IMG/VR virus record: IMGVR_UViG_3300027976_000007
Span: 32,001-96,000 of that record
Direction: 5' to 3' (one strand)
DNA length: 64,000 bases
Origin: a virus
In this document: positions 25,729-63,352 of the stretch, piece after piece
How positions within the stretch are numbered: the stretch's first letter is position 1
Layout of the letters: each line of letters starts with the position of its first letter
Translations under genes and position numbers: made by a program
Notes under the pieces: model-generated
Told to the model about the DNA's origin: nothing
Database searches by the model: none
What the model saw: only the letters and a program-made list of their open reading frames with translations

Positions 25729-25995
25729 TTAGCTTAACTCTATTATTTCATATTCATTATAATTTTCCCCATCCTCTGGGTTATGATAATGATATTTGGT
25801 TTCATATCTATAATCTCCATCTTTATATACTTCTACTTGTTCATCCCATTCTTGTCCATTAGCAAACGATATAGATTCCCTTTTAGAATTAAAGATTTGG
25901 GAGTACTTAGCCTCTTCACCATTACCATAAAAAACAACTTGAAATTGATTTTGGTTCTCATTTAAATATTTTCTAAATGTGTTTAGTTCTTCCAT
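25729..25995 (-). CDS. acidic small protein with degenerate leader (MEELNTFRKYLNE), putative internal head protein
   Basis: Leader resembles FDLKKYL.E of the upstream ORFs. Confidence 0.6.
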   Translation of the reverse strand: MEELNTFRKYLNENQNQFQVVFYGNGEEAKYSQIFNSKRESISFANGQEWDEQVEVYKDGDYRYETKYHYHNPEDGENYNEYEIIELS

Positions 25996-26071
25996 TATAC
26001 TTCAATTATTTTATGTGTTTCTTATTTTATACCCCCAAACACCTTCACCTATTGTATTACCTGCTTATTGG

Positions 26072-26141
26072 ATATTATTCTTGTCTTCTAAAAATTTAGT
26101 AAGCTCTTTATGTATCCTTTGAGCATCATTAGATGTAATTA
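26072..26141. repeat. 70-bp exact copy of 27831..27900 (orphan gene fragment)
   Basis: atattattcttgtc...agatgtaatta is identical at both positions. Confidence 0.92.
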
Positions 26142-26555
26142 AGGCCTATCAATTGTTCTAAGTCTATCTAATGAAGCTTGATATTCACCCTCTTCTGAAT
26201 CTTTAAAATCCTCATTTTCCCTACCAATCATTCCTTTAAGATCTTCTAAATCTACGGTAATCATAACATAATCACCTAATGCTTCAACTTCAGTAGGTAT
26301 TTGACTTGATATTTTTGTGAATGCATGATCTAGACCTAATATATCTTTCCAGTTATCTTCATCAAATTCCATTCCATCTCTATCATCTTCATCATCATAT
26401 ACTACTGAAAATGATACTTTACCATCTTTTATTTCACCATTATAATCACCAGAATCAGCTGTTAATTCTACGGATTGGTCGTAGATTTCAAGATCCATAT
26501 TTTCTTTTAATAGCTTTCCTTCCACTAAGTACTTTTTTAAATCGAAATTGTCCAT
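26139..26555 (-). CDS. leader-bearing acidic protein, putative internal head protein
   Basis: MDNFDLKKYLVEGKLLKE plus Asp/Glu-rich cargo. Confidence 0.7.
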   Translation of the reverse strand: MDNFDLKKYLVEGKLLKENMDLEIYDQSVELTADSGDYNGEIKDGKVSFSVVYDDEDDRDGMEFDEDNWKDILGLDHAFTKISSQIPTEVEALGDYVMITVDLEDLKGMIGRENEDFKDSEEGEYQASLDRLRTIDRP

Positions 26556-26565
26556 TTTATTTTAT

Positions 26566-26850
26566 TTATACTATATTTATTAAATCTGATTCTTTTACTC
26601 TATAACTCATTACCATATTTCCTCTATAATTATCATGTTCAACAACATAAACATACTCACCATCTTTTATTTCTAGATTTTCAGGTTCATTCATGTAAAC
26701 ATCCCAAATAATACCCTTAAAACCTTTACCTAGACCTGATTGGGGTGTTGTTGTAACTTTATCACCAATTTTGAATTTAGGTTCTGGTTTGTTTTCCTCT
26801 TTTAATAGCTTCCCTTCCACTAAGTACTTTTTTAAATCGAAATTGTCCAT
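26566..26850 (-). CDS. leader-bearing protein with SH3/KOW-like cargo, putative internal head protein
   Basis: MDNFDLKKYLVEGKLLKE plus FKIGDKV...GII...YVV...VKESDL. Confidence 0.7.
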   Translation of the reverse strand: MDNFDLKKYLVEGKLLKEENKPEPKFKIGDKVTTTPQSGLGKGFKGIIWDVYMNEPENLEIKDGEYVYVVEHDNYRGNMVMSYRVKESDLINIV

Positions 26851-26867
26851 TTTATTTTATTTTATTT

Positions 26868-27560
26868 TTAACCGGCATGTGAGTTAAAAGGAACATTAAA
26901 CTTAGTAAACAATTTGTCTACTTCCCCCTCCCAATCTTCAACATCTCTTATGATTTGTTGGTATTTGTGGGCCATACCATCATATTCATCTTCATGTCTA
27001 AATTCTCTAGGCCAATCTGAATGGAAATATAATTCTTCATATCGATCATTATCTAAAAAACTCTTATGTTCAAATCCTGCTCTTTTAGCATTATTTGGGT
27101 ATTTAAGATATAATTCTTTATATGCAGCTTTTAATTTTTCAATGTCTCCACTATCTTCTTTTATATTAAGAAATTCTTCATCTCTTTCTTTATCTCGTCC
27201 AATGGTATTTCCAGGGTTGATGAAATCATCTGACTTATCACCACCGAACTCTTTAAGTTTTTTATCTCTTAATTTGTTAACCCCCTCAATGATGCTATCT
27301 ATAAATAGGTTAATATCTTCTTTACTTTCAAATTCACTATTCATCATATCATCCTCAATCTGATCAGTAAGATATTTAGAATTTTGATCTACAATGTAAT
27401 CATCTATGTTTTCTTTAATTTTGTTTTTAGCTTCGTAAGCTGCTTTAACATTTTCTAATGTTGGTAAAGCTTCACCTTGTTTTCGGGTGTCGTATCCCGG
27501 TGCATTTTCTTTTAATAGCCTACCTTCAGCTAAATACTTTTTTAAATCGAAATTGTTCAT
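26868..27560 (-). CDS. leader-bearing modular acidic protein, putative internal head protein
   Basis: MNNFDLKKYLAEGRLLKE plus modules ending in IKE/LKE. Confidence 0.7.
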   Translation of the reverse strand: MNNFDLKKYLAEGRLLKENAPGYDTRKQGEALPTLENVKAAYEAKNKIKENIDDYIVDQNSKYLTDQIEDDMMNSEFESKEDINLFIDSIIEGVNKLRDKKLKEFGGDKSDDFINPGNTIGRDKERDEEFLNIKEDSGDIEKLKAAYKELYLKYPNNAKRAGFEHKSFLDNDRYEELYFHSDWPREFRHEDEYDGMAHKYQQIIRDVEDWEGEVDKLFTKFNVPFNSHAG

Positions 27561-27595
27561 TTTATTTTTGTTTTAATTTGTGGATTTAGATTCAT

Positions 27596-28012
27596 TCATA
27601 TCGTAATGATCCAGTTGTTTTTGAACTTATATAAACGAGCTTCTAAATCATTTAATTCGTTACCATATCTATTAGCTATTTCTCCTCCTTCGGGTTCAGC
27701 TTCCTGCTCCATATCAATGAACAGCTGTTCAATTTCATCTTCTAATTCTCTTTTTTCTCCTCTTAAATCTAAAACCCCATCATAATCTATTTCAGTTAAC
27801 GCAGAACCTCCTACATTATCAGGTTGTTTAATATTATTCTTGTCTTCTAAAAATTTAGTAAGCTCTTTATGTATCCTTTGAGCATCATTAGATGTAATTA
27901 CTTTATTTGATTCTAAAAAATCCAAGATTTGATTACTTAAAATAGTTGCACTTTTGTCTTCTTTTAATAGCCTTCCTTCCACTAAGTATTTTTTTAAATC
28001 GAAATTGTCCAT
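27596..28012 (-). CDS. leader-bearing protein with MEQEAEPEGG module, putative internal head protein
   Basis: MDNFDLKKYLVEGRLLKE; module shared with 61655..63352. Confidence 0.7.
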   Translation of the reverse strand: MDNFDLKKYLVEGRLLKEDKSATILSNQILDFLESNKVITSNDAQRIHKELTKFLEDKNNIKQPDNVGGSALTEIDYDGVLDLRGEKRELEDEIEQLFIDMEQEAEPEGGEIANRYGNELNDLEARLYKFKNNWIITI

Positions 28013-28099
28013 TTTATTTTATTTTATTATACATATGTAATTTTTGAGTTAGGTATAAAGTGTAAACCCAACAAGGTTTTCCTAAATAAGTATATTCTA

Positions 28100-31731: not shown

Positions 31732-32753
31732 TTATTTTTTATTTTTTCAAAGGTTGTTTTAATCCATAAATCTACATTATTAATAATATTACCTAATTGG
31801 TCTTTTTTATAAAACTGTAAAAATTGTTCAGGGTCATAATTTAATTTTTTATTTTTAATAATTTCATTTAAATAATCTTCATCTTGTAAACTTAACATAG
31901 GTTTTGATAAATCCATAACTTTATGACTTTTTTCTAACTCTGTTATTGTTTTTAATATTTTAGGATAAATGATATGATCCTTTATATTAGATTCACATAT
32001 AGAACATATATCCTCTAATGTTGTCTTCTTTGAGGTTAATGTAGGAAAGAGTTTAAATAGTTTTTTAGGACCTAAACCTTTAACTCCTTTTAGTTTATCG
32101 GAGGTATCCCCCATTAATGTTTTATATATAAGAAAATTTTCAGGGTAAACATTAAATTTATCTTTTACAGATTCCTTAGTATAGAATTCTTTCTCTATAG
32201 GTCTATAGACTGTGACATTTGAATTTATAAGTTGGAGGAAATCTTGGTCTGAGGAAACTATGAATATTTTATCCTTTGGTTTTTTAGGGAGGTTGGTACT
32301 TAGGAATGCTATAACATCATCAGCTTCAACTTTATCTATTATTATAGTTTTCACTGGGAGGGTTTTTAAATAATGTGTTATTCTTACTATTTGGTCTATT
32401 TTGGAATCGTTTTCCTCATCTCGATCATCAAATACAAAAGTATTAACTCTCATAGTATCTCTTCCTGATTTATATTCAGATATTAAATTTTTTCTGCTTT
32501 TAGAGGAATCTAAACCATCAAAAACTACATAGACCTCATACGGGTCCATAGTTTTTATCAGAAACCCTAAAGACCTAAAAAAACCCCCAAGACCTCCTAT
32601 ATGAGAACCTTGAGGGTTTACCATATTTAATACTGCAAAATTCCTGAAAAATAAATTCAAACCATCAATAATGAGAACTCTTTTCCCTTCAACAGTCTCT
32701 TTTCCTTCTTCCTTAACGTTATTAAGGAGATTAAATAAATTTTTTTTGTTCAT
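31728..32753 (-). CDS. 5'-3' exonuclease / T4 RNase H-like flap endonuclease
   Basis: IIDGLN, VFDG, YKSGR, EADDVI, SSDQD, GDTSD..GVKGLG.K. Confidence 0.92.
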   Translation of the reverse strand: MNKKNLFNLLNNVKEEGKETVEGKRVLIIDGLNLFFRNFAVLNMVNPQGSHIGGLGGFFRSLGFLIKTMDPYEVYVVFDGLDSSKSRKNLISEYKSGRDTMRVNTFVFDDRDEENDSKIDQIVRITHYLKTLPVKTIIIDKVEADDVIAFLSTNLPKKPKDKIFIVSSDQDFLQLINSNVTVYRPIEKEFYTKESVKDKFNVYPENFLIYKTLMGDTSDKLKGVKGLGPKKLFKLFPTLTSKKTTLEDICSICESNIKDHIIYPKILKTITELEKSHKVMDLSKPMLSLQDEDYLNEIIKNKKLNYDPEQFLQFYKKDQLGNIINNVDLWIKTTFEKIKNK

Positions 32754-56800: not shown

Positions 56801-58150
56801 TCAATTATACATATTAGAATTCCATTCAAATTTTAGATTTCCCGTATTCCATACTCGGTAATATCCTCTATTTAACATAATCTCATATTCTGTAAGTTTG
56901 GGGTCTTCTCCTTGTTTTACTAATAGATCTTTTCTGAAGTTAAATCTATTATATTTTATTTTTGATTTAAACCAATGATATCCTGGAGTAGTAGGTTTTA
57001 AGGGGTTCATATTCAATTTATTGTATAAACCCCCATCACTCCAATCTCTGTTGGCATAAGATATTACTTTTATAGGGGAATGGAGGGTTATAAATTTCTT
57101 AAATAGTTTAGATGCTCCCCCTATAACATTATAGTATTTTTTATTACAAAATCTTAACAATTCAAAATGACCTTCGATATTATTTTGTTTTAAATTTTTT
57201 CGTAATTTACTAAAGGTCATTACTGAAACTAATCCATCATTATAGAATAACCCTAAACTGTATTTACATATAGCATTTCCCTGTAGATGGTTTTCTTTTA
57301 AGAAAGAAGTACTTTCTTTATTTGAAATGTTTTTTACAACACATTTTCTAGCATAAATTGAATTTGGAGTAATACTCAATTGGTTTTTGAGTATTGATTT
57401 GATAATATCGCTTTTTTGGATCCAATCACTATCCCAAATATGTATTAATTTTACCCCTAAAGAGTTACATTCTTTTGTTTTTTTTAGATGGTATGATTTG
57501 TCTTTTTTAAAGAGATCGGAATGATAATAAGTTCCATTAAATTCTATAGCTAATTTTAATTCAGGTAGATATATATCTATTTCTTTCCCATTTAATAATT
57601 CTGTATCATTATTAATTATTTTATCTTTATATTCGTTTTTAATGAAAGAAAGTAGTTCTTTTTCTAGTTTGGATACTCCCTTAAATAATCCTTTTTCTTT
57701 TTCTATTCTCTTTATAGCACTTTTTCTCATTTGGTTTTTTGTTTCTATTGAGTGGGTGTTATATCCAGGTTTTACCCAATCCCAATGACCTTTAATATAG
57801 GAAGAAAACCAGTTCTTTTTGTCATATTTAATAAAAGTAGTTTCACCTTTACATCCACATTTACATAATGGAGGTTTATTATTAAATTTATGCTTTAGTA
57901 TATAATTTTTGAAGGATATGTTATGTTCTTTAGAAATATGGAACATTAAATTCCTATAATCTTTTACATTAACACCACATTCCATACATTCCATTTTATA
58001 GGTTTTAGAGTCTTTTATTTCTTTGATTTTTTTGATTCTAAATTCCCCGTACTTCGAAAGGTATTCCTCCGTCTTTATTGAATGGTTCCATCTCAGATGC
58101 ATCGCTAAGGACCTAGCGGTTATTTCTTCATTACATATATTACATTTCAT
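56801..58150 (-). CDS. free-standing putative homing endonuclease (zinc fingers plus PD-(D/E)xK domain, Hef-like)
   Basis: C2H2 repeats, CKCGC, EIDIYLPELKLAIEFNG.YYH; inserted after the capsid terminator. Confidence 0.7.
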   Translation of the reverse strand: MKCNICNEEITARSLAMHLRWNHSIKTEEYLSKYGEFRIKKIKEIKDSKTYKMECMECGVNVKDYRNLMFHISKEHNISFKNYILKHKFNNKPPLCKCGCKGETTFIKYDKKNWFSSYIKGHWDWVKPGYNTHSIETKNQMRKSAIKRIEKEKGLFKGVSKLEKELLSFIKNEYKDKIINNDTELLNGKEIDIYLPELKLAIEFNGTYYHSDLFKKDKSYHLKKTKECNSLGVKLIHIWDSDWIQKSDIIKSILKNQLSITPNSIYARKCVVKNISNKESTSFLKENHLQGNAICKYSLGLFYNDGLVSVMTFSKLRKNLKQNNIEGHFELLRFCNKKYYNVIGGASKLFKKFITLHSPIKVISYANRDWSDGGLYNKLNMNPLKPTTPGYHWFKSKIKYNRFNFRKDLLVKQGEDPKLTEYEIMLNRGYYRVWNTGNLKFEWNSNMYN

Positions 58151-58248: not shown

Positions 58249-59877
58249 TTACAGTGTGTTCAATCCACTTACTAGGATCTTACCGTAAAATTCTGGTCTC
58301 ACAACTTTCTTAGCGTATCTAGTCATCAAACCTTTACTTGGTACGTAAGTGTCTGGATCATATACAAGAGGTGTCATAATCAACGGAACATAAGGGGCGA
58401 AAACCGCTCCGGCTTCTAGGAATTGACCTCCTCTGAATCCCATAAGGATTACATTTTCAGTCATATAAGGGTTTTTATACACCGTATATCTTGAATTCAT
58501 AGTTCCTGCTTTTTCAACTCCAAAAGCATATGTTTGTTTAGTAACATCACCGTCTGAATTAGAAGCAAATCCTGGGATAGACTCTAAAATAGTTCCTACT
58601 GCAGGAGAACAAACTATGAAGTTAGCTCCTCCTCTTAAGGTTCTTTGGTGAATTATATTAGACAATTTTTGCATTTTAGTTCCAAGTGTTTGGAACCATT
58701 GTCCTTGGGAATTAAAGAATCCTAAATCAGAATTTAATACACCAGCAGCACCTATTGAAAGGTTATTAACCGCTGACCAATATTCGGTACCAGCCGCTGC
58801 TGACTCAATCAACATATCAAGTATTTCTAAGTCTATATCTAAGGCGATATGTTCACTCATAATACTTGTTAATTCTGCTTCAGCATCCAAACTTTGGTAA
58901 GCATCAAGGTCTTGAGCGAACTCAGGAGTCCATTTAGCTTTAAGTTTTCTAGTTTTAGCAATTATACCTTCACTTCTCATTGAAATGTTAATTTCAGGGA
59001 TAGAAATAGGATCATTACTACCATTAAGGTTAGTATTTCCTTCTTCGTAATCTCCTCTATTAGCATCTGTAGGTTGTAGAGTATAAGTTATAGTAACGTT
59101 AGATCCTTCAACAGGAGCTTGAGTTGAACTTACTACGAATCTCAAAGTAGAGCCTGAAGCCTTTGTAAAAGCGGACAATTGGATAGGTCCTGTTATAGAT
59201 CCAGTACTCAATTGGAAACTTCTGATTGCTTCAGCATCATAGTTAGGGATTGCAGAGGTAGGAATCATTACTACTTTCAAACCACCAGCAGAAACAGAAG
59301 CAGAATATGCTGAGTCAGCATTTATGTCTGTAAACCAGTTAGTAGATGAAGCCGTAGTAGCTGAAGAGATAGAAGCTGTGTTGTTAATTGAATAACCATA
59401 TCTTCCAGCACCATAAGATCCACCTGTTGTAGAGTTCCCGAAAGGACCAGTACCGTCAGCAGCTAAAGTCCCATATAAAGACTCACCAGCAGTGAAAGGG
59501 GTTTTTGAAGTTCCATATTGGAAATCAAGGAAGAATACTAAACCTGCAGGCAGGTTCATAGGTTGTACAGAGACAAACTCCTTAGTGGAGATTTGACCCA
59601 TGATTTTTCTAACCATAGGAAGAGCTATTCCAGCCCATTGTGCTCCTGTACCAGTTGAGAAACTACCAGCACCAGCACCTCCACCAGTTGTAGAGTTTTC
59701 TACTACTAATTGTTTTGACTGGTTCTCAAGGATCATAGACATATTGTTTCTTTCTGTTTCAGAATCAATACCTTCTAATAGTCCTGTAGTCTTCCATTTT
59801 TTGGCTAGTCTTGAAGCATCACTTTGTAGTGATTTATAAGGACTAGCACTTTCTAAAAGTGATTGTAATTTTGACAT
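58249..59877 (-). CDS. major capsid protein (T4 gp23-like)
   Basis: VQPMNLPAGL.F, AKTRKLKA.WT.E.AQDL, AEAELT, FAPYVPL, TRY. Confidence 0.96.
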   Translation of the reverse strand: MSKLQSLLESASPYKSLQSDASRLAKKWKTTGLLEGIDSETERNNMSMILENQSKQLVVENSTTGGGAGAGSFSTGTGAQWAGIALPMVRKIMGQISTKEFVSVQPMNLPAGLVFFLDFQYGTSKTPFTAGESLYGTLAADGTGPFGNSTTGGSYGAGRYGYSINNTASISSATTASSTNWFTDINADSAYSASVSAGGLKVVMIPTSAIPNYDAEAIRSFQLSTGSITGPIQLSAFTKASGSTLRFVVSSTQAPVEGSNVTITYTLQPTDANRGDYEEGNTNLNGSNDPISIPEINISMRSEGIIAKTRKLKAKWTPEFAQDLDAYQSLDAEAELTSIMSEHIALDIDLEILDMLIESAAAGTEYWSAVNNLSIGAAGVLNSDLGFFNSQGQWFQTLGTKMQKLSNIIHQRTLRGGANFIVCSPAVGTILESIPGFASNSDGDVTKQTYAFGVEKAGTMNSRYTVYKNPYMTENVILMGFRGGQFLEAGAVFAPYVPLIMTPLVYDPDTYVPSKGLMTRYAKKVVRPEFYGKILVSGLNTL

Positions 59878-59909: not shown

Positions 59910-60842
59910 TTAAATTTTAATACCAGCTAGTTTTTGGAATCTTGCAACCATAGGGTCAACCTCTATAATAGAAGTTTTAGATTCATTTAAATTGGCTAAT
60001 GATTTTGAAGCAGAACCCATTTTGTTTTCTCTGATTGGAGCTTTTCCTCTAGGAGTTATGCTTTTTATCAAAGTCTCATATATGACTTTTGCTTCTGATG
60101 TTGTGGATGCCTTATCGAAAGATTCTAGAACTTGGATTTTTTGAGATTCTCTTAAATTGTTAACTTTAAAAATCTTATTTGTGTAAATAAGTTTAGCATT
60201 TAATAAATTAATTTCATTAAGTTCATTTCTAAGAATTTTTACTGTTTTATAAGCTTCAAAAAGTTCTTTGTGATAATCAACTTCATCTTCTACTTCAGCT
60301 TCACCTTCAACAGGGAAATCTGATTCGGATTCTAATTCACCATCTTGGTTCATTTCGTCTATAACGGAAGCTACAAAAGCTTTAAATTCTTCTTCAGTCA
60401 TATCCCCTACATCGAAATCTTCTTCGTCTTCAGTTTCATCCTCCGTTTCTTTTTCTTCTTCTTCAGTTTCTTTTTCTTCTTCTTCAGTTTCTTCTTCTTC
60501 AGTTTCTTCTTCTTCAGTTTCTTCTTCAGTTATAGCTTCAGTTTCATCATCCATTTCTCTTTCGATTTCTGCTAGGATTTCGTCTAAGTTGAATTCCTCT
60601 TCTTCTTCTTCTGTAAAAGAGCTCTCTAAATCTTCTTCTTCTTCTTTCATTGTATCGTATTCTTCTTCTACATTTTCCTCCTCTTCTTCTTCTCCTAATT
60701 CGATTTCTTCTAACTTTGCAGCTAACATTGATTTCAAATGAGGGGTGAAGGCTTCTTCCAATGCTAGTTTAGCATTTTCAATAGCGGATTCTTTTATAGT
60801 CTTAGCATCAGCGATAGCATCTTCTAATATATTTCGTTTCAT
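59910..60842 (-). CDS. prohead core scaffolding protein (gp22-like)
   Basis: Highly acidic coiled coil between protease and capsid genes; ends RFQKLAGI. Confidence 0.85.
   Translation of the reverse strand: MKRNILEDAIADAKTIKESAIENAKLALEEAFTPHLKSMLAAKLEEIELGEEEEEENVEEEYDTMKEEEEDLESSFTEEEEEEFNLDEILAEIEREMDDETEAITEEETEEEETEEEETEEEEKETEEEEKETEDETEDEEDFDVGDMTEEEFKAFVASVIDEMNQDGELESESDFPVEGEAEVEDEVDYHKELFEAYKTVKILRNELNEINLLNAKLIYTNKIFKVNNLRESQKIQVLESFDKASTTSEAKVIYETLIKSITPRGKAPIRENKMGSASKSLANLNESKTSIIEVDPMVARFQKLAGIKI
60445..60531. repeat. coding tandem repeat encoding (EEETE)/(EEEKET) units
   Basis: 15/18-bp units of ttcttcttcagt. Confidence 0.85.
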
Positions 60843-61039: not shown

Positions 61040-61651
61040 TTAGTTTAAAGGACAAGATCCATTACCGCATAAAATATCTATGATTATAGAATTTATTACC
61101 CCATACTGGTTATAGTATTTAGATTCAGTAATGTTTTCTCTAAGAGGTTTCATAAAGGAGTTTGGATTGGATGGGGTGCTTACAAAATCCCAACATAACA
61201 ATTCAAAATCATCTTGAACCTCCATTATTCCACCTTCTTCTTTAAGAGATCCCATACCTCTAGAAGACACACCAACACGAATATTGTTTTCTATTAAAGC
61301 TTTTAAAATATTACCTGATGGGGTAGGAAGGATTTCTATTTTCCCTATAATTTCATCCCCATCCCATCTATATTCTATAATATTATGTGATACGTTTTTT
61401 AAATTTACAGTTTGGGATTCTGGATGGTCTAGTTCTCCAGTTGCTCCATTACTTTTAATTAGTTCATCATACTTCTTCATTTCCCTAACCCAAAGCTCCC
61501 TGGAATAATATCTACCGTTACCGTTTTTGATTTCCGCTGTGGCTAGTATCCCTTCAACTACAAGATTTCCCCTAGCTGATAGTTTACCCTCTGTAATGAC
61601 AGGAGAGATTGTAGGTTTAAAGGTGGAAGTCTCTATTAATAGTTGTTTCAT
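61040..61651 (-). CDS. prohead core protease (T4 gp21-like)
   Basis: NGNGRYY, GELDHP, VSH, GVSSRGMGS, DFVSTPS. Confidence 0.95.
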   Translation of the reverse strand: MKQLLIETSTFKPTISPVITEGKLSARGNLVVEGILATAEIKNGNGRYYSRELWVREMKKYDELIKSNGATGELDHPESQTVNLKNVSHNIIEYRWDGDEIIGKIEILPTPSGNILKALIENNIRVGVSSRGMGSLKEEGGIMEVQDDFELLCWDFVSTPSNPNSFMKPLRENITESKYYNQYGVINSIIIDILCGNGSCPLN

Positions 61652-61654
61652 AAT

Positions 61655-63352
61655 TTATAGGGAATTTTTTCTTTTTAGAGGTCTTTTTCTTTCTTCAATA
61701 TTATTATCTTCAATAGTATCACCACTAACTATTTCAGTTGGAGGAGAATAAGAACATCCTGCGGTTTTTTCGTACACTTTAACCATGGTGGCTTTTTTCT
61801 TTTCTAAAAGCTTTATTTCCTTCTCCATCTCCTTGATCTTTTTCTTGTCAACAAGTTCAGATAAACTTTCATCTTCAGAAACCATAGATAATCTTTTACT
61901 TTTTGAATCAATAGCGTGTGATATAGCTTCTATTTGAAATTCTATAGTCGCAATCTTCCCTTGGTTTTCTATCTCCGATAATTTACTATCAAGGGTAGGT
62001 TTTTTCTCTTTTTTAGGTTTAGGGGATGGTTTTTCTCCTAAGGGGAGTTGTTCTTTTATAAGGTTTATCAGTTTTATGTGTTTCATATTTTTTTTACTTT
62101 CTGAGAATTGTCTTCCATCTTCAAATGATGCTACTGTGGATTCAGAATCATACCAATCCTCTACTCTATAATCAATATTACCTTTCCCGTCATCTATTCT
62201 ATTTACATGCTGGGTAACTCTTTCTGATTTTGATATATCTCTTGCTTTGTTAATAGCTCTAGTTTTAAGGTCTTCACCCTCACCAGCATCGAACCCAAAC
62301 CAAACATCATCAGGGAATTCATTAAAATCATCTTGAGTATATTCTCTGCTATCAGCTTCAGGTGGGTTGAAATTATCATTATCATAAGGGGCTTTTAAAG
62401 GTTGTTTATTTGATACCCCTTCCTTCAATTTAACTTTAACCATTTGGTCTGTTTTTGAAGCTTTTAATCCAGGTAAGTCGTCTCTATATCCTAATCCTTT
62501 TACCCCAAATTGACCATCCTTAACATAATGAAGTCTATCTTTAGTTAAGTTTTTAGCTACTATGTCTTTTATTTGTTCAACAGTTTTTTCGGAGTTCTTA
62601 GGATCTTTCATTTCACAATAATAACCTGACAAGAATTCTTGTCCAAAGATATTATCAATGTTTTTTATATCTTTATAATCATATCCTTTAACCTCCATAT
62701 CAATTACTTCTTTGGGGGTTTTCTTCTCTTCAGCTTTAGCTCCTTTTGCTTCTTTTGCTTCTTTTACAAAAGTTCTTCCACATTCTCTTAATCTTTTCAA
62801 TTTATCGTCTATTGAATTTAAAGCATCACCAAATCTGCCAGCGACTTCTCCTCCTTGAGGTTCAGCTTCTTGTTCCATATCTCTAGTAATTTGGGCTCTT
62901 TCATCCTCAAGTTCATATCTTTCTAAACCTTGTTGGGTTTTATCAACATGAAATCCTTTAGAATATTTAGGTTCACCATCTACTTGGTTTTTAAATCTGT
63001 CCCTTGATGTTCTAGCTCTCATTAAAGGGGAATCATTTACATCTTCTATTTCTTTTATTGAACTTTTAGATGTTGCGGCCGATATTTTACGATCCTCAAA
63101 ATCTGAATATTTCTTTTCCTTTTCATTTAATTTAGATTTAAATATAGAAAAGAAATCTGAATCTTCAGATTTAGTATTTTCATGGGAGTGAATTATATTA
63201 TTTCTTTTTAAACTATTTATTGTTTCTTTTATATCCGCCGCATTACGGATAATAGAAGGGAATAGTTTCTTAGCAGTTTTTTTGAAAATTTCAACATTAC
63301 CTTTTCCTTTAAGGATCAAATTATATTGTTCTTGTAAAGTTTTTTGTTTCAT
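61655..63352 (-). CDS. charged modular head-region protein
   Basis: 565 aa, upstream of protease; many (L/I/F/V)-x-E sites; MEQEAEPQGG module. Confidence 0.7.
   Translation of the reverse strand: MKQKTLQEQYNLILKGKGNVEIFKKTAKKLFPSIIRNAADIKETINSLKRNNIIHSHENTKSEDSDFFSIFKSKLNEKEKKYSDFEDRKISAATSKSSIKEIEDVNDSPLMRARTSRDRFKNQVDGEPKYSKGFHVDKTQQGLERYELEDERAQITRDMEQEAEPQGGEVAGRFGDALNSIDDKLKRLRECGRTFVKEAKEAKGAKAEEKKTPKEVIDMEVKGYDYKDIKNIDNIFGQEFLSGYYCEMKDPKNSEKTVEQIKDIVAKNLTKDRLHYVKDGQFGVKGLGYRDDLPGLKASKTDQMVKVKLKEGVSNKQPLKAPYDNDNFNPPEADSREYTQDDFNEFPDDVWFGFDAGEGEDLKTRAINKARDISKSERVTQHVNRIDDGKGNIDYRVEDWYDSESTVASFEDGRQFSESKKNMKHIKLINLIKEQLPLGEKPSPKPKKEKKPTLDSKLSEIENQGKIATIEFQIEAISHAIDSKSKRLSMVSEDESLSELVDKKKIKEMEKEIKLLEKKKATMVKVYEKTAGCSYSPPTEIVSGDTIEDNNIEERKRPLKRKNSL

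Follow-up and report, generated by a model that had tools for sequence, protein, structure and literature searches.

A conserved N-terminal leader on unrelated acidic proteins of T4-related phages, probably a capsid-targeting propeptide

The 64,000-nt stretch of virus DNA analysed here (the window; positions 32,001 to 96,000 of record IMGVR_UViG_3300027976_000007) belongs to a 142-kb IMG/VR virus record that is ~88% complete and has nearly all of its genes on the minus strand. It carries an array of four adjacent minus-strand open reading frames (ORFs; 26139-28012) whose products share the start M(D/N)NFDLKKYL(V/A)EG(K/R)LLKE, hereafter the leader, followed by different proteins, the cargos. 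The observations support the conclusion that the leader is a portable tag, occurring on at least 54 unrelated cargo families and confined to a phage clade with a gp21-type protease. Probably it is a capsid-targeting propeptide that is clipped off by the prohead protease in the manner of the T4 capsid-targeting sequence (CTS), to which it is not detectably homologous.

The array and the elements next to it are as follows (aa, amino acids).
27596..28012, minus strand: leader gene 1 (ORF1), 138 aa; the leader is residues 1-18, and cargo residues 86-131 form a MEQEAEPEGGEIA module also found in a 565-aa protein next to the protease
26868..27560, minus strand: leader gene 2 (ORF2), 230 aa; acidic ORFan cargo with no family match
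26566..26850, minus strand: leader gene 3 (ORF3), 94 aa; cargo family found again behind full or half leaders in relatives
26139..26555, minus strand: leader gene 4 (ORF4), 138 aa; very acidic alpha/beta cargo
25729..25995, minus strand: fifth gene (ORF5), 88 aa; variant leader, start MEELNTFRKYLNEN
26047..26141, minus strand: dead, out-of-frame remnant of a gene-1-like cargo, 24 codons, directly past the stop codon of gene 4
28027..28038, minus strand: promoter-like motif ACATATGTATAA, 16 nt upstream of the ATG of the first leader gene

The leader copies of the window are identical at 47-52 of the first 54 coding bases, and an A-rich AAATAAAATAAA-type stretch lies upstream of each ATG of the array. 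The original prediction, made from the letters of the window, had described four ORFs with a common leader over a near-identical repeat, followed by unrelated and mostly acidic proteins, and had noted that the leader contains L-x-E twice. All of this is borne out: the four N-termini are alike over 18 residues, which cannot be due to chance; past residue ~18 the window proteins have no mutual BLASTP similarity; the isoelectric points (pI) of the cargos are 4.05-5.05; and the two sites are L10-x-E12 and L16-K-E18. A fifth ORF was said to carry a degenerate leader. A leader-type start is indeed present there, but it is not a degenerate copy. Homologues of the leader cargos in related contigs have alternative starts, namely M[KE]ELYRFRQFLTE[GD], MSFDYRAYLKNNPLLKE or MGNFNITKFFRDQYLAEG, and MEELNTFRKYLNEN fits the first of these types. 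Because cargo homologues in relatives carry the same variant type, the fifth leader is, as judged by this comparison, a genuine variant and not a decayed copy.

A degenerate DNA pattern for NFDLKKYL[AV]EG, in which the amino acids but not the codons were fixed, was run on IMG/VR and matched at least 117 loci, over which a leader hidden Markov model (HMM) was then run. Among the matches listed, the motif stands directly after M-x in 118 of 126 pattern hits. The HMM recovered at least 168 non-redundant leader genes from the IMG/VR loci, including NFDLRKYL and NFNLKKYL variants, with 3-7 leader genes on each of the large contigs. A search of relatives with such a model had been proposed as a check of whether the cargos vary; they do, as at least 54 unrelated cargo clusters stand behind one leader among 100 unique leader proteins. 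The pI of the cargo is below 5 in 83% of the leader proteins, compared with 20% of the small ORFs in the genome of the window. Among the matches listed, all 48 leader contigs of at least 20 kb are fragments of ~130-170 kb genomes according to CheckV completeness, and 24 of these 48 carry Peptidase_S77, including the sole complete genome (166 kb, with terminal repeats). The leader pattern was found in just two of 185,579 prokaryote genomes, in both cases on contigs of metagenome-assembled genomes. The leader arrays of most relatives are neighbours of the terminase region. The complete genome G036 has its leader genes spread out, at 30, 34 and 106 kb. The nearest isolate is the T4-related Flavobacterium phage immuto, which has a single gene with the variant leader MENFDLKKFLVENRL (an MENFDLKKFLVEN variant), located between the DNA polymerase and single-stranded DNA-binding protein (SSB) genes. 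A tblastn search of the leader against isolate phage records returned nothing beyond this variant, the leader motif was not found in a literature search, and a word-index search of a large protein collection with residues 1-40 of ORF1 gave only four proteins and was uninformative.

Across the collected copies the leader is conserved residue by residue: N3 (98%), F4 (99%), D5 (91%), L6 (91%), K7 (K 80%, R 18%), K8 (99%), Y9 (98%), L10 (96%), A11 (90%), E12 (97%), G13 (87%), K or R at position 14 (93%) and L15 (92%). Conservation falls off past residue 18. Among the matches listed, [LIV]-x-E is present at residues 10-12 in 153 of 158 leaders and the second site in 145 of 158, and all Met-started leaders have at least one [LIV]-x-E within residues 10-20.

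The presence of a gp21-type protease, on which the predicted processing of the leader depended, was confirmed. The genome of the window has both this protease and an acidic scaffold in the gp22 position, in a head module 30 kb from the array. The order there is major capsid protein (MCP), acidic scaffold-like protein, protease and 565-aa protein, then a 287-aa protein, portal and terminase. The genes that bear on the leader are listed below, with a slash in the peptides marking the putative cleavage position.
61040..61651, minus strand: gp21-type prohead protease (Peptidase_S77, E 2e-28; PHROG head maturation protease, 9e-57; 33% identity to T4 gp21), the proposed processing enzyme
59910..60842, minus strand: very acidic scaffold-like protein, encoded in the gp22 position and proposed as the partner on which the leader docks; clade-wide N-terminus ..DLLKE/AIAE/AK
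61655..63352, minus strand: 565-aa protein between portal and protease (the T4 gp67/gp68 position); family N-terminus MKTLQEQYNLIKE/GKG; modules in common with leader cargos
58249..59877, minus strand: MCP, gp23 homologue; conserved N-terminal ..SLLE/S

The T4 gp21 protease cuts after Glu in L/I-x-E (PMC9026906, PMC8442874). The N-terminal site of the window protease (..LLIE/T) has its T4 counterpart in gp21 (QLLIE/T), that of the scaffold in gp22 (QLIAE/A) and that of the MCP in gp24 (ELLRE/S); for the site of the 565-aa family (NLIKE/GK) no T4 counterpart is named. The T4 cleavage rule thus appears to be kept in the clade, in the form of short N-terminal [LI]-x-E peptides on the homologues of classical gp21 substrates. 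At MCP residues 53-62, which align with the maturation site of T4 gp23 (..FLTE/AEIGG), the window protein reads ..LVVE/NSTTGG, and the protease may accept Val at P3 there. HNH or homing-endonuclease genes occur in or beside the head module, at 56801-58150 between the MCP and PhoH genes in the window and at 1458-2138 of contig L050 between a protease gene and a leader gene.

Cargos that share the prohead with a Glu-specific protease and need to survive are expected to avoid its motif. We therefore compared observed motif counts with those expected from composition-preserving shuffles, using residues 21 to the end of the 54 cluster representatives. The motif [LI]-x-E is present at 0.59 of expectation in the cargos (50 observed against 84.7 expected; z -4.4; bootstrap confidence interval (CI) 0.43-0.75) and falls below expectation in 40 of the 54 clusters. 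The ratios are similar for L-x-E (0.58) and I-x-E (0.60) taken alone. The corresponding ratios are 1.09 for the reversed motif E-x-[LI], 0.98 for [LI]E, 1.11 for V-x-E and 1.13 for [FYM]-x-E, and [LI]-x-D is enriched (1.28, CI 1.11-1.47). For [LI]-x-E itself, non-leader proteins of the same loci give 1.18-1.26 and acidic non-leader proteins 1.16. Two proteins of the head module lie above expectation, with 16 sites against 12.2 in the scaffold-like protein and 13 against 7.7 in the 565-aa protein. Among the window cargos, ORF1 has one site (3.3 expected), ORF3 none, ORF4 none (2.0 expected) and ORF5 one. The depletion fits the prediction for head-resident, protease-exposed proteins. The alternation of side chains in beta strands was considered as another cause and ruled out, because only Glu in one orientation is affected: no depletion is seen for [LI]-x-D, [LI]-x-K or E-x-[LI].

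The array also has ties to the head genes. A motif like those before structural genes had been noticed in front of the cluster, and this holds on a wider count: ACATAT[TG]TATAA has four gene-strand copies in the 142-kb genome, upstream of the first gene of the head operon, a neck/adaptor gene, a tail-tube gene and ORF1, with a chance expectation of 0.18 per window. Of the looser form ATAT[TG]TATAA[TC]AAA the whole genome has 19 copies, all of them on the gene strand and usually 5-33 nt upstream of an ATG; in relatives it stands before 24 of the 100 leader genes and 68 of the 524 non-leader genes. Its positions in the window are 28036, 44406, 47939, 48508, 50268 and 56057. A second promoter-like flavour, TATATATTTA[AT], is found upstream of replication genes.

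In addition, some cargos have modules in common with the 565-aa protein. Residues 86-131 of ORF1 are 52% identical to its residues 144-189, and its C-terminal module is carried by two further leader cargos, one in contig L064 and the other a 438-aa protein in contig L069. The gene order in contig L050 runs from the protease through the HNH gene and a leader gene to the scaffold. The conserved module ..LEDEIAQLYRDMEQEAEPEGGEIA.RYG..LN.LE.KL.., at 27620-27757 (ORF1) and 62786-62923 (565-aa protein) of the window, also occurs in an 841-aa protein of immuto (77% nucleotide identity) and in several 288-751 aa proteins of relatives (L100, L052, L012, L001); it has no Pfam model. Outside the array, a leader-like h-x-L-KK-hh-x-E is present in a 99-aa protein with the start MKKFELKKLIKEE (genome 107767-108066; L128:11767-12066), and a 279-aa protein contains MKKSKLKKLILEV twice (genome 105932-106771; L128:9932-10771). 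The looser motif h-x-h-KK-hh-x-E gave three hits on non-leader proteins against 0.66 expected, which is too few to use.

Traces of recombination are found at the leader, in line with the earlier suggestion that the repeat could serve as a handle for exchanging cargos. The 95 nt at 26047-26141 are 89% identical to 27806-27900 and duplicate, out of frame, a segment from inside gene 1. To judge from its position and reading frame, this remnant after gene 4 is a scar of cargo replacement within the array. In contig L038 (11385-12176, minus strand) one 264-aa protein contains three leaders in frame; Ile replaces the internal Met, and the last of the three is a half leader. It looks like a fused tandem array and would need cutting at the leaders to free its units. 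Meanwhile, the half leader ..ELYEG[KR]LLKE joins one module to four different cargos (L009, L074, L076, L084), and the internal leader copies in the fusions retain the part with the putative cleavage sites. From the scar, the triple leader and the half-leader fusions we infer that cargos are swapped and fused at the leader.

Structural modelling was also proposed in the original prediction, and it gave a mixed result. The AlphaFold2 model of ORF4 is a confident alpha/beta fold over the cargo (pLDDT, the predicted local distance difference test, 85-91), and residues 1-16 form a short separate helix with pLDDT below 50. The ORF1 model is poor (pLDDT 52) and all-helical, and the leader is again a detached, low-confidence helix. 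In both models, then, the leader is a short helix of low confidence that stands apart from the folded cargo. The fold searches gave no usable function. Foldseek returned only weak matches for the ORF4 model (the C-terminal domain of T4 MotA, E 0.03, template-modelling score ~0.3), which were not used, and an ESM Atlas search for ORF2 returned nothing. Pfam and PHROGs gave almost nothing for the five window cargos and 100 leader proteins (a weak DUF6960 match, a match to CARD and a few PHROGs without names). The suggested role of the cargos as anti-defence or DNA-mimic proteins therefore has no support beyond their acidity, with no usable match from Pfam, PHROGs or Foldseek, and the suggestion that any ORF captured behind the leader is packaged exceeds the data.

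The course of events that we infer for the capsid-targeting propeptide runs from docking and cleavage to retention in the head and injection. The invariant N-terminal half of the leader (N3 F4 D5 L6 K7 K8 Y9) would dock a new protein on the acidic scaffolding core during prohead assembly. The gp21-type protease would then cut after Glu in Y-L-A-E/G and/or in L-L-K-E/. The cargo, purged of internal [LI]-x-E, would stay intact in the head and be delivered with the DNA. Meanwhile, the leader DNA would double as the recombination junction at which cargos are swapped, replaced and fused. More tentatively, and with the odds somewhat against it, the uncultured, T4-related marine clade might possess a plug-in head-cargo system, in which any gene recombined behind the leader would be docked to the scaffold, clipped and injected. 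More than 50 acidic, site-purged ORFan families would then be loaded in this way, plausibly as counter-defence or host-takeover factors that act before phage gene expression.

Several points weigh against the capsid-targeting reading. The array lies outside the head module, with the ribonucleotide reductase gene on one side and the lysis genes on the other: genes for a DnaB-like helicase and ribonucleotide reductase lie upstream, and those for small membrane proteins and an amidase endolysin downstream. Likewise, the leader gene of immuto is sited in the replication module. The looser promoter motif is also found upstream of a few metabolic genes, and it precedes reductase, PhoH and HNH genes. 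ORF2, with four [LI]-x-E sites against 3.2 expected, is the sole undepleted cargo of the window, and its product might be cut into pieces instead of staying whole; the sites (26868-27560) are IKE, IIE, LKE and IKE at residues 48-135. The depletion could stem from another Glu-specific protease or from an unrecognised structural bias. The likeness to the T4 CTS is one of pattern, with no detectable homology between peptides that are too short for a homology test. The T4 internal proteins IPI-III are described as highly basic (PMC8442874), whereas the cargos here are acidic. Finally, a literature search turned up no virion proteomics or N-terminal data for the clade.

Some of these points suit a different account, in which the leader directs its proteins to, or lets them bind, something other than the prohead, for example as a common docking helix by which many small acidic host-takeover proteins attach to one host or phage factor, and no packaging takes place. 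We regard this as unlikely. Small acidic ORFans in hyperplastic arrays are typical of phage early genes, the window array adjoins the reductase gene, the immuto gene lies among replication genes, and conservation at the peptide level would suit any binding function. However, a docking tag of this kind leaves unexplained why [LI]-x-E is depleted and [LI]-x-D enriched in the cargos, why [LIV]-x-E is universally retained in the leader, and why the array has a promoter motif in common with the head, neck and tail-tube operons and modules in common with a head-module protein.

The codons of the leader bear on another possibility, namely that the repeat is a mere expression and recombination cassette (A-rich initiation without a Shine-Dalgarno sequence, AT-rich first codons) and that the peptide is functionless. 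Positions -20 to -7 are strongly A-rich, the first codons are AT-rich with AAA and TTA above background, and scars and fusions occur at the leader, as such a cassette would have it. The bias of the leader towards AAA, TTA and GAT, together with the A-rich upstream stretch, fits an initiation region lacking a Shine-Dalgarno sequence, but does not explain the conservation. Most of positions 3-12 have a single amino acid in 91-99% of copies (K7 being the mixed position), whereas synonymous sites are at background: the codons at N3 (AAT/AAC 74/26) and Y9 (TAT/TAC 79/21) match those of the cargos. Beyond the motif used for the search, L15 is encoded by CTA and TTA at ~50:50 and residue 14 by AGA, CGN or AAA, so that Leu and Arg switch codon families. 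Conservation at the nucleotide rather than the amino-acid level, which is expected of a cassette without peptide function, was thus not found, and since synonymous sites are at background and the amino acids are fixed, the leader peptide is under purifying selection. Phe4 is the only position with a reversed codon bias, being TTC in 56% of copies and 12% in cargos over all loci. Gene conversion or concerted evolution was rejected as the clade-wide cause of leader identity, as synonymous identity is 0.77 within contigs and 0.75 between contigs (p 0.24); the copies of the window itself are unusually alike. The absence of clade-wide homogenisation within genomes speaks against the cassette too, and so do the internal half leaders in fusions, which keep ..L[AY]EG[KR]LLKE. 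Since the cassette moreover gives no reason for the avoidance of [LI]-x-E in cargos, we consider it very improbable.

That a modifying enzyme recognises the leader, much as the one maturase of a ribosomally synthesized and post-translationally modified peptide recognises the leader of that peptide, is hardly credible: among the matches listed, a homologue of FAD/NAD-binding oxidoreductases lies within 4 kb of the leader arrays in 53 of 121 cases and an AAA_28 protein in 42 of 121, but even the commonest neighbour reaches only 44%, these common neighbours look like conserved genes flanking a variable region beside the terminase gene, in the genome of the window the oxidoreductase and AAA_28 genes are more than 40 kb from the array, which is adjoined by reductase and amidase genes and by no gene of maturase type, and the leader genes of G036 are scattered. 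No enzyme goes consistently with the leader.

If the capsid-targeting reading is true, the clade holds a large natural library of phage proteins delivered with the DNA, of at least 54 families, behind one easily searched tag. The tag would point to candidate counter-defence or takeover proteins for marine hosts related to Flavobacterium, and it would provide phage engineering with a second, non-homologous capsid-loading peptide. T4 IPI*, a pre-made protein that is injected, acts on the host defence GmrSD; in the same way the injected proteins of this clade would be the first phage products to face host defences. The protease motif is depleted in cargos and enriched in scaffold-type proteins; this contrast is a testable computational signature that might be applied to other phages, and should the plug-in system exist, avoidance of the cleavage motif would be a general mark of capsid-loaded cargo that can be read without experiment.

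The closest known system is that of the T4 internal proteins. The T4 CTS is MKTYQEFIAE, in which residues 4 and 7 mainly serve targeting and residues 8 and 10 processing; a change of residue 10 to Asp prevents processing (PMC9026906, PMC8442874). In both systems, proteins that are unrelated in the rest of their sequence start with a short peptide. Position 4 is aromatic in both peptides, and F4..Y9-L10-A11-E12/G13 of the leader mirrors Y4..F7-I8-A9-E10 of T4 (aromatic-[IL]-A-E). The head genes of the window phage are in a T4-like order and include those for a gp21-type protease and an acidic scaffold. Its tagged genes are in tandem, and in T4 ipII and ipIII have an identical CTS; in T-even phages generally, a conserved CTS fronts a cargo set described as highly diverse. 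The leader differs in having 18 residues with two sites instead of 10 residues. The scale is also far larger here, with at least 54 cargo families and 3-7 or more genes per genome, and the clade is uncultured, marine, related to Flavobacterium phage immuto and known from sequence alone.

The propeptides of T4 Alt, gp67, gp68, gp22, gp24 and gp21, which are cut at L/I-x-E, provide a second comparison. The protease, scaffold and MCP of the window keep [LI]-x-E within their first 5-11 residues, and T4 gp21 (QLLIE), gp22 (QLIAE) and gp24 (ELLRE) have the same early motif. Unlike the leader proteins, these T4 substrates are conserved structural proteins and no swappable cargo set. In phiKZ-like jumbo phages (201phi2-1, SPN3US), a diverged gp21 homologue processes head and ejection proteins at S/A-x-E, cutting behind the Glu (PMC9026906). 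The likeness here is that many head-internal proteins have propeptides removed by a Glu-specific prohead protease; the motif is different, there is no single common N-terminal tag, the proteins are much larger and the clade is unrelated.

With respect to recombination, Arbiol et al. reportedly described in 2010 the PeSL mobile cassettes of T4-type phages, repeated units of promoter and stem-loop that flank ORFans and are said to mediate their shuffling. Both these cassettes and the leader repeat are short repeated DNA at gene starts and a possible homology handle for shuffling small ORFans, but the repeat here is translated and selected as a peptide. The concept of a tag for head-loaded proteins is already known from the T4 CTS and internal proteins; specific to the present clade are the sequence of the leader, the acidic cargo set and the evidence from site avoidance.

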